Shown here: in pieces, positions 42,493 to 57,885 of the stretch
Numbering within the stretch: position 1 is the stretch's first letter
Layout of the letters: each line of letters begins with the position of its first letter
Assembly: GCA_951406725.2 (NCBI GenBank)
Contig: OX597815.1
Location: 134,478,001-134,542,000, forward strand
Reading direction: 5' to 3'
DNA from: Octopus vulgaris
Taxonomy: Eukaryota
DNA: 64,000 bases
The notes under the pieces: model-generated
Database searches by the model: none
Told to the model about the DNA's origin: nothing
What the model saw: only the letters and a program-made list of their open reading frames with translations
Made by a program: the position numbers and the translations under genes

Positions 42493-43870
42493 TGATTGAT
42501 TGATTGATTGATTGATTCTAGTTTCAGCTTATGAGCTGTGGCCATGCTGGGGCACCGCCATTTGGTGTTGCTACTTGGTTTCACTTCACGAAAGCTTTCT
42601 AGCAACTGCCATTTGGTGCATGAGAGAGTTCGATGCAGCTGCCCTCATCTGCCCCTCCTGCCGTGAAGTTGGTTCATCTGGGACACCTGACAGGAAGAGA
42701 TCCAGCTTCATTTTAAAGACATCTGCATCCACCCCATGCAGGTCTCTCAGGTTCTTCGGGAGGATATTGAAGAGCTGTGGGCCTCGGAAGCCCAGGCTAT
42801 CACAGAATCTTGTCCTACATCTTGATGGCAAGTTTGGAGTCCTAGGCACCACGCAGTGGCGCCCAGTTCTGGCATTTGCGTAACTCTCGATGCCAAAGCT
42901 CAGGACACGTCCCTCCAGGATCTTCCAGATGTATATTATGGCATATCTTTCCCGCCTACGCTCCAGGGAATATAGTTTTAATCTCTTGAGTCTTTCCCAG
43001 TAGCTTACATTCTGCATAGAGGCTATCTTCTTCGTGTAGCTACGTTGGATCGCCTCGAGCTCTGTGATCAACTTGACACTGGATAGTGACCATAACTGAG
43101 AGCAGTAGTCAAAGTGGCTTAGGACAAGTGTCCTCCAGAGGACCATCATGGTTTCTTGTTCTCTTGTTCTAAAGGTTCTGAGGATCCATCCGGCCAGTCG
43201 TCTACATTTCATTGCCAATTTAGCAACATGTACACGAAAGGTCGCGTCATCACTCATGTAAATACCTAGGTCACGCACTGATTGTGCCTCTGGGATTGCT
43301 ATTCCTCCGGGTCCAGTGTATTCATTGGGTATTGCATTTAGTTTTGCATGCTGATAGTATAGAGCTTGAAACTTTTCAGCATTGAACTGCATGCTATTCT
43401 TTTCGGCCCACTTGTATATTTTGTCTAGCTCACATTGCAGGTGTTTAGTGTCCTCAGGGTTCTGTATTGCCTGTGAAACTTTTGTATCATCTGCATAACT
43501 TCTGATCGTGGCTCTCTGCGTGGCTGAGGGCATGTCTGAGAGGGCCATTATGAACAGTAGTGGTCCCAGAACAGTGCCCTGCGGAACACCGCTCACTATT
43601 TGCGTGTTAATGGAAGTGGCCCCATTGGCCACTACCACCTGACTTCTATCTTTCAGAAAGTCATGAAGCCATTCTCCCAGTTTTCCAACTATGTTGAGAT
43701 CACGCAGTTTGTGACATATCATTCCATGATCGACTTTATCAAAGGCCTTTGCAAAGTCGAGATATATCACTTCCACATTTGAGTGGTTGAGCAGCCGTTT
43801 CAGCACCCAGTCATAGTGTTGTAGGAGCTGAGTTAAACAGCTTCTCCCTGGTCGGAAACCATGTTGGGTG
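42493..43870 (-). mobile_element. 5'-truncated, young CR1/L2-group LINE with uninterrupted RT frame
   Basis: ORF 42586-43926 has QHGFRPGRSCLTQLL, YLDFAKAFDKVDH, SGVPQGTVLGPLLF and YADDTK. Short 3' UTR and (ATCA)n tail at 42493-42517. Confidence 0.93.
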
Positions 43871-44073
43871 TCGAGAGTTACGCAAATGCCAGAACTGGGC
43901 GCCACTGACTCCAAACTTGCCATCAAATTATTACATTTGCTTACTGTTCATACAATTTTTCTATAAATTTGAACTAATATATATATATCCCCGATGTAAA
44001 CGGTAAAACTAAGCACGTGTCTGTCTTGACACAGAGAGCTGGGGTTAGTTTTACAGTTTGCATCTCGATGACC

Positions 44074-44152
44074 GAATGTACTGATGAAGTCACGGACATT
44101 TGAATTATGTAAGTAATTCTTTTGTTAAAGACCGAAACCGAGGTATGCATTT
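44074..44152 (+). ncRNA. Type I hammerhead ribozyme (GUA site, cleavage predicted after 44145)
   Basis: Stem I gaatgta/tgcattt, CTGATGA at 44081-87, long stem II (gtc/gac, gaca/tgtt, gaattat/gtaattc), GAAA at 44134-37, minimal stem III CC-GA-GG, then TA. Confidence 0.78.
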
Positions 44153-44619
44153 AAGTCTGTTTTTTATTTAAATTTTCATATGTCCTGCCCGCCAAATTTG
44201 GTTCTGGTGTTCGCTGAATTCTTCCTCTAGAGAATTTCCCTTGTAGTTTGATCGTTGATGATCTCTTTCTAGCATTCGGCCGGCTACCTAGCAGGCCAGC
44301 CCTGCCTATATACACATATATTAGAATTTTCCCTGACTTCTCAGATTTTTTGAATGCTGGACTACTGGTTTTAAATTGATATTAAAATTAATATTAATTT
44401 ATCTCCCTCATTACTTAAATATTGAAATAAATACGTTCCCTAGTAGTAAGCACTAACCGCAGTGAATTATTCACTGCAGTCCTTCGCTTCAGGAATTTCT
44501 TAGCGCGCCGGAACCAAGACATTTGAAATTTTATCCCCGATGTAAACGGTAAAACTAAGCACGTGTCTGTCTTGACACAGAAAGCTGGGGTTAGTTTTAC
44601 AGATTGCATCTCGATGACC

Positions 44620-44698
44620 GAATGTACTGATGAAGTCACGGACATTTGAATTATGTAAGTAATTCTTTTGTTAAAGACCGAAACCGAGGTATGCATTT
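44620..44698 (+). ncRNA. Type I hammerhead ribozyme, second tandem copy
   Basis: Same sequence as 44074-44152, shifted by 546 bp. Confidence 0.78.
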
Positions 44699-44959
44699 AA
44701 GTCTGTTTTTTATTTAAATTTTCATATGTCCTGCACGCCAAATTTGGTTCTGGTGTTCGCTGAATTCTTCCTCTAGAGAATTTCCCTTGTAGTTTGATCG
44801 TTGATGATCTCTTTCTAGCATTCGGCCGGCTACCTAGCAGGCCAGCCCTGCCTATATACACATATATTAGAATTTTCCCTGACTTCTCAGATTTTTTGAA
44901 TGCTGGACTACTGGTTTTAAATTGATATTAAAATTAATATTAATTTATCTCCCTCATTA

Positions 44960-44996
<37 letters not shown>

Positions 44997-45014
44997 GTAT
45001 TTATATTTATATTT

Positions 45015-45472
45015 AAAATGAGTGTGAGAAATTAGATATTAATTTAATTAACATCGATTTCACACCAGTGGTCTAGCATATAAAAAGACTGAAGATTCAG
45101 TAAAATTGTATTATATACATATTAGAGGGAAATCGCTATGTGGACACACTTATGCTAGAAATAGATCCGCTATGGTCTTACCACTAAGATTTGTTCTCAA
45201 GAAAAATTTAGCAAAACAACCAAAACGTAATGGAGCAAGACAAAAGAAAAAGTAATAAAAATATGGATTATTCACATACATGTTTCACTATTAACATATT
45301 ACGTAATTTTACTTACGTAAATGTCCGTAGATCATCGGTGTGACCGTCCAGATGAATATAATTTGCAGGATTGCATACTAGGACGTCCGCACAAAGTCAG
45401 ACTTGTAAACAGTTCTTACCCATTACACTCGTGGTTACTATTTCAAATGTCCTCATTTTGGCGCGCTAAATT
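45015..45472 (-). mobile_element. Diverged relative of the 546 bp hammerhead element, opposite orientation
   Basis: Minus strand shares ttagcgcgcc..gacatttgaaat, cggacattt, tttctagcat and atgct.gac.actggt..aaattaatat with 43989-44963. Bounded by TA-rich repeats. Confidence 0.75.
45272..45343 (-). ncRNA. Type I hammerhead ribozyme with CCGAUGA core variant (GUA site)
   Basis: Minus strand reads tcaca-CCGATGA-t-cta..acgtaa(gtaaaa)ttacgt..tag-t-GAAA-CATG-TA-tgtga. Perfect 5 bp stem I and palindromic stem III. Confidence 0.72.
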
Positions 45473-45668
45473 ATGTATATATGTATATATATGTGTATAT
45501 ATGTATGTATATGAATATGTGTATATGTATGTATGTGTTTATGTATATATATATATATATATGTATATATATGTATGTGTATATGTATATATATATGTAT
45601 GTATATATGTGCGTATATATATATATGTATGTGTATATGAATATATATATATGTGTATATGTATATGG

Positions 45669-45699
<31 letters not shown>

Positions 45700-45883
45700 T
45701 ATATGTATATATATATGTATATATATTTATGTATATATATATATATATGTATGTATGTGTATATGTATATATATATATATATGTATATGTATATATATAT
45801 ATGTATTTATGTGTATATGTATATATATATAAGTATATATATATATATGTGTATATATATGTATGTGTATATGTATATATAAA

Positions 45884-46215
45884 GACCCCCTTCGGTCATG
45901 AATGACCATGGGATTGCACCTAGAAAGTTACCCTTCTAGACACAAGTCCGGGCAAGGTTGTTTATGGAAGACCAGCAGTCACCCATGTATACCAGCCTCC
46001 CTCTCCACGCCACCAGTGTTATCCAAGGGAAAGACAAAGGTCGATACAGCTTGGCACCAGTGACGTCGCAACTCATTTCTACAGCTGAGTGAACTGGAGC
46101 AACGTGAAATAAAGTGCCTTGCTCAAGAACACAACAAGCAGCCCGGTCCGGGATTCGAGCTCACAACCTCACGATCGTAAGCTCGACGCTCTAACCACTG
46201 AGCCATGCGCCTTCA
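45884..46215 (-). mobile_element. Young tRNA-derived SINE, family C
   Basis: Minus strand ggcgcatggctcagtggttagagc (A box)..gagctcgaatcccgg (B-box-like), then gtgttcttgagcaaggcacttta, and a 3' tail ending catgaccgaagggggtc. Inserted in TA-rich repeats. Confidence 0.85.
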
Positions 46216-46227
46216 CATGTATATATA

Positions 46228-46547
46228 TAAAATCCTTTCTATGGTTGTGTGGTAAGAAGCTTGCTTCCCAGCCATAAACACATACATATATGTATACATA
46301 TATATACATATACACTTATATATACATATATATATATATACACATACATACATATATATATATACATATATATATATGATATATATATGTATATATATAT
46401 CATATATATATGTATATATATATGTATGTATGTGTATATATATATATATGTATATATAAGTGTATATGTATATATATGTATACATATATGTATGTGTTTA
46501 TGGCTGGGAAGCAAGCTTCTTACCACACAACCATAGAAAGGATTTTA
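46228..46547. repeat. 320 bp near-perfect palindrome (SINE A head fragment plus TA-rich arms)
   Basis: taaaatcctttctatggttgtgtggtaagaagcttgcttcccagcc.. is mirrored exactly at 46500-46547. ORFs on both strands start identically. Centre near 46387. Confidence 0.92.
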
Positions 46548-47003
46548 CAAATTTAGTAAAATTTAATAAAATCTTCATTATTTTCCAAATTAACTGAAGC
46601 AAAAATCAATGTTTTCATCCGAAATCTGATAATGACAGAGTTAACATCGTGACCTGACACCATGAGTGCCTTTAGCGGGTCTTCGTTGTTAGAAGCCTTC
46701 AGGGTAAGTCTCCAGGATAAGTATATACATTTCTTTCCTTTCTTTCATTTGTCTCGAAGGCTTTCTAAAAAGTCATAGGAACTGTGTTTTTTTCCTGACT
46801 GAAAGATAAAAAAGAAAAAAAAAACATTTAAATTTGTCCAGTGCCATGGCGAAGTAAGAAGTATACTATGGATGTAATCTCTATCCTGTCTTCTCATCTT
46901 TAACCCATAATAACCTAGGTTAACCCTGTCGAAATTTTGAAGATAGTTACATAAATAGGGATAGCAAACATACGGAAGCGTCCAGTTAACCTATGCAATA
47001 CTA

Positions 47004-47610
47004 TATCTAGGTATTTCATCTTTCAGATGTTCTCCCTGAAGGTAAGACAATTTTTTTCAAGTTTGTTGCACACACGCATTTTTGCTAGTACATACGCGGT
47101 GAAGCTATACATTAGCGTCGTATTTATTACGTTCGCTATTTTCCAGTAAATATCGGTACTTCGTTGTGCCATATATTTACTTCTATGTATAATTTTCCCT
47201 AACGAGCTATTCTTTACTGGAAAGCAATACTCTCGTATTGCATTACTATTTTTATTGAAACTTCTTCACCGTTCTCGTTCTGTCAGCGTTTTGGCGTTTC
47301 AGTAGAGTGTATTGGCATTAATGTGGCAACATCTGAAATGTTGTCGGGTATATGTTGGCTGATGAAGATAAATCAAGTATATGTGTGCAGACATATCTTG
47401 AAAAATCTGAAACTGGTCCCACATTATCCCTATCTAGGTATTTCATTTTTCAGATGTTCTCCCTGGAGGTAAGACAATTTTTTTCAAGTTAGTTGCACAC
47501 ACGCATTTTTGCTAGTACATACGCGGTGAAGCTATACATTAGCGTTGTATTTATTATGTTCGCTATTTTCCAGTAAATATCGGTACTTCGTTGTGCCATA
47601 TATTTATTTC

Positions 47611-47618
<8 letters not shown>
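47004..47618 (+). mobile_element. Second non-coding partial tandem element (427 bp period, ~1.4 units) with a hammerhead
   Basis: 47004-47191 is repeated at 47431-47618 and runs into (TA)n. Confidence 0.8.
47352..47424 (+). ncRNA. Type I hammerhead ribozyme (GUC site, cleavage predicted after 47418)
   Basis: atgttgg-CTGATGA-agat..tcaag.atatgt(gtgcag)acatat-cttga..atct-GAAA-CTG-GTC-ccacat. Canonical core, extended stem II, stem I with one bulge. Confidence 0.85.
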
Positions 47619-47675
<57 letters not shown>

Positions 47676-47677
<2 letters not shown>

Positions 47678-48070
47678 TTTTATTCTTTTATTTGTTTCAG
47701 GTCATCTGACTGCGGTCGTGCTGGAGCACCGTCTTTGGACGAACAAATCGACCCCAGGACTTATTCTTTGTGAGCCTAATACTTATTCTATCGGACACTA
47801 TTGCCGAAACGCGAAGTTACGGGGACGTAAATACACCAACATCGGTTATAAAGTGACAGTAGGGAGACAAATACACACACACACACACACACACATACAT
47901 ATATATACGACGGGCTTCTTTCAGTTTCTGTCTACCAAATCCACTCACAAGGCTTTGGTTGACTCGCAGCTATAGTAGAAGACACTTACTCAAGGTGCTA
48001 CGCAATGGAACTGAATCCGGAACCATGTGGTTGGGAAGCAAGCTTCTTACCACACAGTCACGTCTGTGCC
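47676..48070 (-). mobile_element. SINE family A, full length
   Basis: Reverse complement of the head, core and tail. Further minus-strand copies at 49405-49810, 62190-62500, 62555-63010 and 63430-63870. Confidence 0.88.
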
Positions 48071-54147: not shown

Positions 54148-57100
54148 TCAAAACGAAGAGCGAGATTCGATTGTAATAGATATTTTATTGGTTGAACGGC
54201 ATTTCAACAGTAAGTCTGTCTTTGTCAAGTTCAAAATAAGAAGTGATAAAAATTCAAAATTATAGAAATATAAACGTAAAGTATGAACGAGAGCAACCAA
54301 CATCCACACGTTGATGGAATGACATCATCAGTTTTTAATTTACAATTTTATAACAAGCGAAAAGAAAAAGACAGAAAAAAAATAGAAAAAAGAAGACGAC
54401 AGAAAAAAGGAAAGAAAAAAGAGAAAAAGAATATTTAATCAAACAGTTTTGTATAAATTTGATAATATTCTCCTGTCATCTTATTCATTCCTCCAGGGCG
54501 TGATGTTATTAAACCGCAAACATATTTCTCCTCATACATTCTGAAAAAGTGAAAGTGAAGCAGATTCAGAATATTTTCTGAGAATATGCACTTTCAAGTC
54601 TTCTTCAAAATTGCAGCTGCTTGAAACGAAATGTTCAGCAAGTTCTGTCGAACTACTGTAATTGTGCCTGACGTCGAATCTGCGCCCATTAAACCTTTTG
54701 TTTAATTGTTCTGCTGTGCAACCAGCATAAATCAAGTGTTTTCGTGCATTCTGCAGCGTACACCAAATGGGAATCTTTACATGTTTCACCTTCTGTATAA
54801 ACCATAACATTTCTGTTATTTCTGATGGAATTCACTTCACTCATGTTGTTGCGCAAGGAACAGGGCTTACCTCTCTTGCGGCTGTTCTTTAAGGTACAGC
54901 GTGCATATACTCCAATGTTCGTTTTCTTGGAGTCAGAAATAGAGGTCAATAATTCTCTTATATTCTTATTCCGCCTAAAGGCTACAAAAGGCGGCTGAGG
55001 AAATATCTGTTTGAAACGAGGATAATTTTTCGCTATATGCTGGTAACTTTCGTGCAATACTTTTGAAATGCCAGCGATTGTCGGTGTCAGCTAATCACTA
55101 AAGGAATTCTGTCATCTATTGTATTGTGTTTACTAAAATTATGCATGAAGGTTTGACTATCTTTGCTAATCTTAGCTATTTCATTCGCTATTTTCCTTAA
55201 TCGTGATTCACTGTAACCGCGTTTGACATAATGATATACAAAAGCATTTGCATGTTTCCAGTAATACAAATCCGTTCTATCCTCAAAAATTGGGATTTCA
55301 GATTTGACCGAATAAGATGATGTGGATGATCGGAGCGGTGGTGGATATAAATGTGGGATGACGTGGGCTTGCAGAATAACTCTGTCACTATTCTGCCTCC
55401 AGAAAACTTTACTTTTGTGTCCAAAAATTCAACGCTAGTTTTAAAAAACTAGACGTAAATTTTATGTTGGACTTAAAGCCATAGTTTCTAGCATAGCAGT
55501 CATAGAAATGCAAGAAGTCCATTAAACTATCCTGTGATGTCATCATGAACCGTAACCAGAGTACTGGTTCATGACCATGAAGGGATTTGAATGTCTTAAG
55601 TAACTGTGTCTCGAATTTCGTTATGAAGACATTAGCGAAATTAACTGCCTTGGCGCAACCCTTCGTCTGGTGGTTAAATCTTTGTCTAAACTTCATTGTG
55701 TTACTTTCTAATTAATACAAACCTCAATAATCTACAGAGAAACTTTGATGGAATATTTTTGTTTGACCGCTTTTCGAAGGCATCCATGCATGCTTCTACC
55801 CCTTCATTGTGGTCAGTAGTGGGATATAAGGAAGAAACATCCATAGTTACAACCCCCCCCCCCCCCCAAAAAAAAAAAAAAAAATAAACAGTTCTCGACA
55901 CGGCCTCGGTGCTTAAAAAAGTTGATTTTTAGATACAAAATCAAAGGTATCCCGAATATAGGAACTTGATCGTTTTGCGACGGGGAGAAGAAAACCATCC
56001 AGCCATTTCGAAATTTTGGACGTACAACATTCATATCCGCTGCAAACTGAGTGCATTGGAGAAAATCTTTTGAACTCTTTGTGCATCTTAGGAAGACCAT
56101 AAAATACAGGAATTCTTCTTTCTGACCGTAAAATCTTAGATTCGGTCTTATAAACAAAATTGATTTCCTCCATTTCCAGAATTATTTTGTCAAGTTCCTC
56201 TCTGTAATTGGGGTTTGGATCGACAGGTAATTCTTCATATGAAGTTTAGTAATTTAAAACTTCTTCACATGCTCAAATATACTCACTTTTGTCCATAATT
56301 ACGATAGTGCCCCCCCTTATCCGCCATCTTAATAACAGTAGAATCGTTATTAGCTAGACATCGGAGTGCATAACGTTGGGAATTTGTGAGGTTATTCCAG
56401 GACTTCTTTCCACTTGTTTTAAGGCTTTCTCTAATGTCTGCCTGACAAGATTTAAGAATTTCCAGTAGTGCTTGTGAATGTCCATCCCGAACTTTATCTA
56501 GATACCAATTGGGATTCTTTTCAATCCAATTATGCTACATTCGATCATCATCATTTTTATTTTCAGTAAGCATAGGGTTTTCTGACTCCTCGTTACCAGT
56601 TTTTTTCGAAAAAATATTCTTTCAGCTTGTGACGGCGGACAAACTGAAATAATCCTAGTTTATTCTTGTCGAAATTCTTAGTGCTTGGGCAAAAACTCAG
56701 TCCAAGCTCTAAGTTTGAGAGATCATCGGGCGAAAGTTTTAGTTTAGATAAATTTATAACCGACTTATTCTCTAGTGTGATGGTTTTTCTCGGGCAAGTG
56801 GTTTTCAGAGTCTTACTCTCATTAGATTCCTGACTACCTTTTGGGCTTTACTCGAAATCTTCACTTAAAACACGGAACCTACAGAGTGATAAAATTTGTC
56901 CTGAATGTTCATGTGAGAAGTTATAATTTTTACTCGTCTTTCTAGGGGTAATCCATTTCTGGGTGGGTGATAGGAAGTGAGTGACTTCTGTCATTCCATC
57001 AACGTGTGGACGCTGGTTGCTCTCGTTCAAACTTTACGTTTAAATTTCTATAATTTTGAATTTTTATCAATTCTTATTATGAACTTGACAAAGACAGACT

Positions 57101-57165
57101 TATTGTTGAAATATCGTTCAAACAATAAAATATCTATTACAATCGAATCGCGCTCTTCGTCTTGA
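54148..57165 (-). mobile_element. Penelope-like element (RT + GIY-YIG), frameshifted, with 177 bp inverted terminal repeats
   Basis: Minus frames give FYGLPKMHK, TMDVSSLYP, NFANVFI, WLRF, TELFCKPT..HHRSDHP, PFVAFRRNKNIRELL, CKDSHLVYAAEC..LNKRFNG and LITSRPGGMN. 54148-54324 is the reverse complement of 56989-57165. Confidence 0.92.
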
Positions 57166-57204
57166 CTGTTTACCTTTGCGAAGAGTTACGTCCATTCTTT
57201 TTAA

Positions 57205-57261
<57 letters not shown>

Positions 57262-57885
57262 CGGATACTTAAGCCGATTGACGATGGATATTGGGTACGT
57301 GTTGGTTTTCAATATCTCTAGGAAGCGTGTGGTGTGGGTCACTATTTCCTCTGTCCTGTTGCACTTGCCCTGGATGCGTGTAAGCTCATTTCGGGCGCAT
57401 CCTATTTTGACATCGAGAGGAAGGGCTGAATTGCAGTGAACCAACATATCTCTACTGGTTGCTTTCCTGTAGAATTCGGTGTGGATCACTCCTTCCATTA
57501 TTTTCAATAGGAAGTCGAGAAGCGATAGGGATCCAGTGCTGTCGGGATGTTGTATAGTGAACAGTATATTCATGTTGTTGATGTAAGCAAGAGGATGTAA
57601 TCTACGTACCTGGTGAAGAAGGCGATGTTGAGTGCTCGATGTTCCAGGTGTTTCATATAGATGATGGCCAGTAAGTTCGAGGGAGGGAGTAGCCAACAAG
57701 TTCGAGGGAGGGAGTAGCTCGATTACATCCCATGAGAAGACTTGTTGTCTGCTTCTATATTTTATCATGGAAAGAAAAGTAGGTGTTGTCTACGATGATG
57801 GACAATTGTTGATGTGTATCAGCTGCGGTGAGTCCGAAGCAGTGGATGTCGGACGCTACTATGCAGTCAGTCAATAGGTTGACTG
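57262..57885 (-). pseudogene. Second Penelope-like RT fragment
   Basis: NTYFSFHDKI*KQT..LMG and SLSLLDFLL..TEFYRKATSRDMLVHCNSALP..NTYP. Interrupted by short SINE-derived duplications. Confidence 0.78.

Follow-up and report, generated by a model that had tools for sequence, protein, structure and literature searches.

The segment at 47004-47618 of the Octopus vulgaris DNA analyzed here (64,000 nucleotides of contig OX597815.1, hereafter the window) is probably a 1.44-unit copy of a multi-copy, 427-bp non-LTR retrozyme, likely pasted into a (TA)n tract by enzymes of Penelope-like elements (PLEs). In our best reading, the 427-bp element is a non-autonomous, Penelope-dependent retrozyme. Non-LTR retrozymes as PLE-dependent passengers are already published as a class, of which this family is a further member; the value is incremental. 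The class is likely extended to an octopus-like genome, two unrelated families that share a TA target lie 2 kb from each other, and the 427-bp family provides naturally varying stems III and favored 3' end points, which bear on the dimer requirement of the ribozyme and on PLE copying of circular templates.

The insertion and its 427-bp unit

The features of the locus are as follows.
47004-47618, + strand: complete insertion of a 427-bp non-coding element, 1.44 units long and arranged head to tail (self-alignment; the joint recurs in run contigs)
47004-47191, + strand: first copy of a 188-nt segment, pseudo-LTR-like and likely 5'-truncated (repeat alignment)
47192-47430, + strand: single-copy part of the unit at this locus, with no ORF remnant; family contigs bridge 47191/47192 and 47252-47298
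47171-47255, + strand: zone in which family copies stop at three 3' end points (47172, 47191 and 47255), each entering TA-rich sequence (run contigs)
47346-47430, + strand: type I hammerhead motif, one complete copy, outside the duplicated part (motif scan and folding)
47346-47358 paired with 47419-47430, + strand: hammerhead stem I
47359-47365, + strand: hammerhead core CTGATGA
47366-47408, + strand: hammerhead stem II, a 43-nt arm with 4, 5 and 6 bp
47409-47412, + strand: GAAA, followed by C-TG-G and the GTC triplet
47412-47418, + strand: minimal stem III strand (ACTGGT), self-complementary, plus GTC; cleavage predicted after C47418
47431-47618, + strand: second copy of the 188-nt segment, forming the 3' end of the insertion; its terminal TATA merges with the TA tract
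47619-47674, no strand: (TA)n microsatellite, the putative integration target

When the two direct repeats (47004-47191 and 47431-47618, offset 427) are aligned, 182 of the 188 positions are identical (96.8%), with six substitutions and no gaps. This bears out the preliminary description of the locus, which had reported 188-nt repeats at a period of 427 ending in (TA)n; the pure TA run spans 47615-47674. The same description called the repeats terminal. Direct repeats they are, but their ends are not fixed termini, as other copies of the family cross both of them and stop elsewhere. We therefore rejected true LTRs: the 188-nt repeats are the overlap of a 1.44-unit head-to-tail insertion, and family contigs continue past both ends. 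The 5' truncation of the first copy is likely because family contigs continue across 47004, a start that lies 12 nt beyond the position equivalent to the ribozyme cut and adjoins a short TA-like host junction. Outside the TA tract there is no target-site duplication, the longest match between both flanks being 3 nt. The unit has a GC content of 36.5% and retains no coding remnant, all six frames being broken by stops, and tblastn of these frames against the rest of the window gave nothing under E 0.3.

One of the six differences between the repeats (47039) is a change in copy 1, and the remaining five are likely changes in copy 2, being absent from the listed family variants. Together with seven further positions in the single-copy part that depart from the family majority, this places the divergence of the locus from that majority at about 13 of 615 positions (about 2%), some of which may be subfamily letters. 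An exact 23-mer from the ribozyme had no match in metagenome or viral contigs, and an exact 21-mer from the 188-nt repeat had none in prokaryote genomes. The one metagenome match to the repeat 21-mer (L001) was rejected as chance, since it shares only 22 nt with the element. Just upstream of the insertion lies a separate 94-bp repeat (46899-46992), predicted to form a hairpin, which has a depth in the thousands in sequencing runs X1 and X5, varied flanks and no second copy within the window.

The hammerhead motif and its stem III variants

A GUC hammerhead with a long stem II had been proposed for this element, and we found both: the predicted cut after C47418 falls exactly where the preliminary description had put it, and stem II comprises 15 bp in three segments, with predicted pair probabilities of 0.89-1.0 for the five pairs checked. 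The core, which had been called fully canonical, is so in its letters, but the first pair of stem II (10.1-11.1) is A-U (A47366-T47408) and not the usual G-C. With all core letters and stems I-III present, the motif corresponds, on structure alone, to the type I hammerhead of metazoan non-LTR retrozymes. It is not a minimal PLE hammerhead, since A47366-T47408 directly follows the core.

In a strict scan of both strands, the motif at 47346-47430 was the sole match. A relaxed type I descriptor gave three matches over the window versus a mean of 0.19 in 100 block shuffles, of which 16 had at least one match and none had three; the cores matching a hammerhead in the window are 47359 and, in a neighboring 546-bp element, 44081 and 44627. 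By itself, the hammerhead motif is thus only moderately rare, so that support for it rests on its stems, its place within the repeat unit and its variation in the family. Rfam reported no hammerhead over the window at gathering score, and none of its 57 matches at E<=10 over 43900-47700 is a hammerhead. An "active" retrozyme locus, as defined by Li, Clavereau and Pollet (2026, bioRxiv 10.64898/2026.07.22.740005), holds two complete ribozymes; the 427-bp locus has one core (47359) and is a solo, monomer-class copy. Because it has only one ribozyme, double cleavage cannot free a 427-nt monomer from it, and other loci would have to supply any 427-nt circle.

Stem III had been described as one transition away from palindromic. 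It is indeed a near-palindrome, but it is not simply broken, as the ACTGGT of the window already self-pairs over 6 nt through two G-U wobbles, at a predicted -3.2 versus -8.3 kcal/mol for the perfect palindrome. The short stem III at 47412-47418 likely needs a dimer. Three other forms were read from insertions and between-joint letters in family contigs: ACCTGCAGGT (run X5), ACCTGCGCAGGT (X1 and X2) and ACCGGCTCCGGT (X1, X2 and X5). ACCTGCAGGT and ACCTGCGCAGGT are perfect palindromes, and ACCGGCTCCGGT is a hairpin with complementary arms; all three have predicted self-duplexes of -16 to -23.5 kcal/mol and hairpins of 3-4 bp. That there are at least four different stem III sequences, all self-complementary, suggests selection on ribozyme folding. 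Among the 35 unit rows listed, no substitution affects the 29 core and proximal-stem positions, a weak signal (P about 0.06) that comes from the best 40 of 41 rows and from a motif near the edge of the compared stretch. The commonest short stem III of the family may be either the wobble form or the perfect palindrome, contig depth being halved at 47413-47414. One subfamily is altered in distal stem II (47379, 47384 and an insertion at 47386), which counts against activity.

Nearest-neighbor folding predicts an inactive register for the monomer, with C3 paired to G47416 (p about 0.94), and the active monomer is predicted at -13.5 versus -23.2 kcal/mol for the minimum free energy (MFE) fold. A modeled double hammerhead reaches -42.2 kcal/mol, versus -46.4 for two separate MFE monomers and -59.1 for an unconstrained dimer. 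Models of this kind omit tertiary contacts, so that the predicted energies neither prove nor exclude cleavage. The whole unit is predicted to fold far better than its shuffles, with z scores of -5.6 as a linear molecule and -6.6 as a circle (matched by 0 of 100 shuffles), as would befit a stable, self-paired circular monomer; the minus strand also scores -3.8.

The family, its end points and its likely mode of spread

Parts of the stretch are present in 20 of the 24 sequencing runs listed (four organism labels, nine studies), none of which holds half of its words. The element is thus multi-copy, as had been supposed, rather than a single-copy locus. Four of these 20 runs (X1, X2, X5 and X17), all as assembled contigs, were aligned to 46780-47430, that is, to 651 bases including 224 bases of left flank, with 1499, 52, 722 and 5 contigs, respectively. 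X1 may contain the window locus itself and is not fully independent. In X1 and X5, the summed depth over the unit ranges between thousands and hundreds of thousands, whereas the left flank has a depth of 43 in X1; depth peaks over 47022-47260, and an X5 contig with a hammerhead variant has a depth of 3683 versus 15-40 for five longer X5 contigs. We infer that the family numbers hundreds of copies or more, depth itself being no copy number.

The joint between successive units recurs in all four aligned runs, as 47430 to 47004 in X1 (two contigs), X2 (one) and X17 (one), and as 47430 to 47009 in X5 (one). All five rows with letters between the two sides of the joint return to 47006-47009. As other family pieces bridge 47191 and 47252-47298, the family forms a closed 427-nt cycle in which neither end of the window insertion is fixed. 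This abundant, head-to-tail family supports the label "retrozyme-like" given in the preliminary description. Family contigs are short and their tandems collapsed, so that dimers and 1.4-mers look alike, and no two-ribozyme locus is found among them. The longer pieces of X2 and X17 continue into TA repeats and flanks like genomic copies and are therefore uninformative on circles, the RNA status of both runs being a guess; none of the runs with parts of the stretch is recorded as RNA.

Among the 24 of 216 loose ends listed, TA-rich tails start at 47191 (20 X1 contigs), 47255 (X2 and X17) and 47172 (X17), with spacings of 19, 64 and 83 nt; the flanks of X2 and X17 beyond 47255 differ and thus likely represent two insertions. 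Two of the three end points fall within alternating TA runs of at least four letters, which cover 32 of the 427 positions, a weak hint of microhomology priming. With a TA tract here and TA-linked ends at three positions in three runs, the family shows the microsatellite or AT-rich insertion typical of PLEs, and the locus shows their partial tandem, in which the first copy is 5'-truncated. PLEs are characterized by partial tandems, truncated 5' ends and insertion into (TA)n (PMC8557442), and PLE relics are present within the same window.

In the preferred model, loci with at least two ribozymes would be transcribed by read-through, and the hammerheads would cut after GUC, short-stem forms as a dimer through the self-complementary stem III and long-stem variants possibly as monomers. 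By analogy with other animals, unit-length RNA would then be ligated into a well-folded 427-nt circle. A PLE protein would nick (TA)n, start copying from a TA-rich site within the RNA and continue for more than one turn. The overlap would then set the length of the direct repeats (188 at this locus, about 430 in the 546-bp neighbor). The copy at this locus holds a single ribozyme and is hence likely a dead end. The misfolded predicted monomer counts against this model, as do the cleavage in vitro of only one of nine predicted Xenopus dimers (bioRxiv 10.64898/2026.07.22.740005) and the dispensable ribozyme of the anole PLE (PMC11167929).

The main rival dispenses with the ribozyme. The element would be a non-autonomous PLE derivative that spreads by linear, uncleaved read-through RNA and internal priming, with a passenger or protein-dependent hammerhead and no circular RNA. 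There is precedent for it in the anole PLE, the ribozyme of which is protein-assisted and dispensable for insertion, priming being internal and targets AT-rich: PAc starts reverse transcription at internal sites of RNA that is uncleaved, and mutation of the ribozyme leaves insertion normal (PMC11167929). The 1.44-unit locus also comprises a whole unit plus a second priming zone, the predicted active folds are less stable than their alternatives, and record 10 of X17 crosses the ribozyme without a cut and continues into TA repeats and flank, although that X17 is RNA is a guess. We nevertheless consider this route unlikely, as at least four stem III sequences are all self-complementary, which suggests selection on ribozyme folding, and as the unit is predicted to fold strongly as a closed circle. 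A second possibility, which we regard as quite improbable, is that the unit forms the end (pLTR) of a long autonomous PLE, whose 5'-truncated insertions, in place of a small stand-alone element, would account for the abundance of the family. PLE copies mostly lack their 5' end (PMC8557442), 47022-47260 has the greatest depth, and the pieces at the 24 of 216 loose ends listed each cover about 100 nt of the unit. On the other hand, family contigs complete the 427-nt cycle with nothing added, the six frames hold no coding remnant, and no ORF-like loose end was seen by eye among the best 24 of 216; ORF-linked ends may lie among the other 192, and a core change in the one further substitution row.

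Least plausible is a local DNA duplication of an ordinary repeat with a chance or fossil hammerhead-like motif. Such motifs do occur by chance, with at least one relaxed match in 16 of 100 shuffled windows, and Rfam has no hammerhead match here, but the run contigs largely refute this explanation: three runs share the joint from 47430 to 47004 and a fourth has close variants of this joint, several 3' ends are TA-linked, and stem III co-varies. Duplication of a unique locus was likewise rejected for the 427-bp repeats on account of the family contigs in public runs.

The preferred model, a retrozyme that depends on PLE enzymes, lends itself to a more speculative extension, which we find possible but rather doubtful. 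This cephalopod family would tune its ribozyme between dimer-only and monomer-competent forms via the length of its palindromic stem III, a PLE would prime on its circular RNA where one of a few TA-rich sites within it anneals to nicked (TA)n, and copy length, under or over two ribozymes, would decide which insertions breed. If true, many dated copies and two unrelated families would amount to a natural test of rolling-circle reverse transcription of circular RNA by PLEs, which has been proposed in print; in the portions of the literature on these elements available to us, we found no demonstration of it.

Known systems and neighbors in the window

Metazoan non-LTR retrozymes were defined by Cervera and de la Peña (2020, PMC7229834), who reported circles in coral, mussel and axolotl, linked a weak stem III to dimer-dependent cleavage in axolotl and newt forms and proposed PLEs as drivers. 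The octopus family resembles these elements in having a type I hammerhead and a head-to-tail unit within their size range of about 150-450 bp, present in many copies (427 bp, with the joint in four of four runs aligned), a GC content below 50% with no ORF, a stable predicted circle and a weak, self-complementary stem III as in axolotl and newt. It differs from them in that the locus has 1.44 units and one ribozyme, and in a much longer stem II (15 bp) that starts with A10.1-U11.1. In vertebrates, retrozymes have been tied to PLE pLTRs, and solo monomers counted (bioRxiv 10.64898/2026.07.22.740005). Like non-autonomous PLE derivatives and pLTRs (bioRxiv 10.64898/2026.07.22.740005, PMC8557442), the octopus element shows a partial tandem that yields pseudo-LTRs, 5' truncation and a solo "monomer" copy, and as in MRC1-type elements and TA-targeting Neptune and Naiad PLEs (PMC8557442), its microsatellite target masks any target-site duplication. 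Its three 3' end points among the 24 of 216 loose ends listed are 19, 64 and 83 nt apart, spacings other than the 30-40 nt "tail" of such derivatives.

PLE hammerheads, along with a circle model, were described earlier (Cervera and de la Peña 2014, PMC4209133; the related literature also includes PMC3846280). With these minimal hammerheads, the 427-bp motif shares a palindromic stem III region suited to dimer cleavage and a long stem II; it differs in having no extra base between 9 and 10.1, no G10.1-C11.1, a long stem I and family variants whose stems III are hairpins of 3-4 bp. Plant LTR retrozymes, which carry type III ribozymes inside both true LTRs, a PBS, a PPT and 4-bp duplications (PMC7229834, PMC7761336), likewise combine direct repeats with a short, hammerhead-bearing non-coding element that they flank. 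The 427-bp element is nonetheless not of that type, its single ribozyme being type I and outside the repeats and its ends varying among copies. For O. vulgaris, 190 Penelope-like families have been reported, covering 6.83% of the genome, in an article whose available portion mentions no ribozyme or retrozyme (PMC13282606) and whose repeat library may already include the 427-bp family unnamed. A search by title and start of abstract, with subscription journals and Repbase outside its scope, showed no report of an octopus hammerhead or a cephalopod ribozyme among the papers listed.

The 546-bp element at 43989-44963, to which the preliminary description had compared the 427-bp insertion, is a partial tandem with TA repeats on both sides and three mismatches in about 429 nt. 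It has two hammerheads (cores 44081 and 44627), with predicted cuts after 44145 and 44691, a predicted stem III self-duplex of -6.6 kcal/mol and a predicted circular fold z of -5.3. The architecture had been taken as the same, which holds for the partial tandem and the TA repeats but not for the number of ribozymes, one versus two. In this modeling, the 546-bp element is a better candidate for a breeding locus than the 427-bp copy. The best local alignment between the two units (score 30) was reached by 7 of 200 shuffles in one of six comparisons and spans an AT-rich patch of 37 nt that is not significant after correction. We consequently rejected homology between them, in keeping with the lack of evident similarity and the separate family status noted before, although both families may descend from one distant PLE ancestor. 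The 37-nt patch pairs 47167-47203 with 44303-44338, at the main 3' end point of the 427-bp family. Next to the 546-bp element, an open LINE-type reverse transcriptase frame of 453 aa (42586-43947, minus strand; RVT_1, E 1.6e-22) has its upstream end cut by the TA tract that contains this element.

On the minus strand at 54148-57165 lies a decayed PLE-like ORF, which means that PLEs exist in the genome. By eye it displays a DKG motif, an RT and a GIY-YIG-like end, and a degenerate Cys motif before the endonuclease, also seen by eye, which we take to suggest the Neptune clade. The ORF lies between inverted repeats of 177 bp (93%) and (AAT)n tracts and gave a weak Atlas lead to GIY-YIG and HTH_animal clusters. 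A second RT/thumb-like fragment of PLE appearance by eye (57118-57789, minus strand) is interrupted by SINE-like sequence and had no Pfam family over cut-off; of four PLE fragments searched against Pfam, three had no family and the fourth had one sub-threshold Rifin match. In four of four comparisons, alignments between the 427-bp unit and the ends of the PLE relic, the sole PLE compared, were at chance level, and homology between them was rejected. Elsewhere in the window, a near-perfect foldback at about 46229-46546, with the same translation on both strands over ~45 codons, mirror-image Rfam matches and a TA-rich center, is possibly a self-primed duplication or an assembly artifact. SINE-like families, which presumably resemble octopus SINEs and together with the microsatellite load would fit an octopus-like host, are abundant, at 47676-48070 and many other sites, with copies 70-90% alike.
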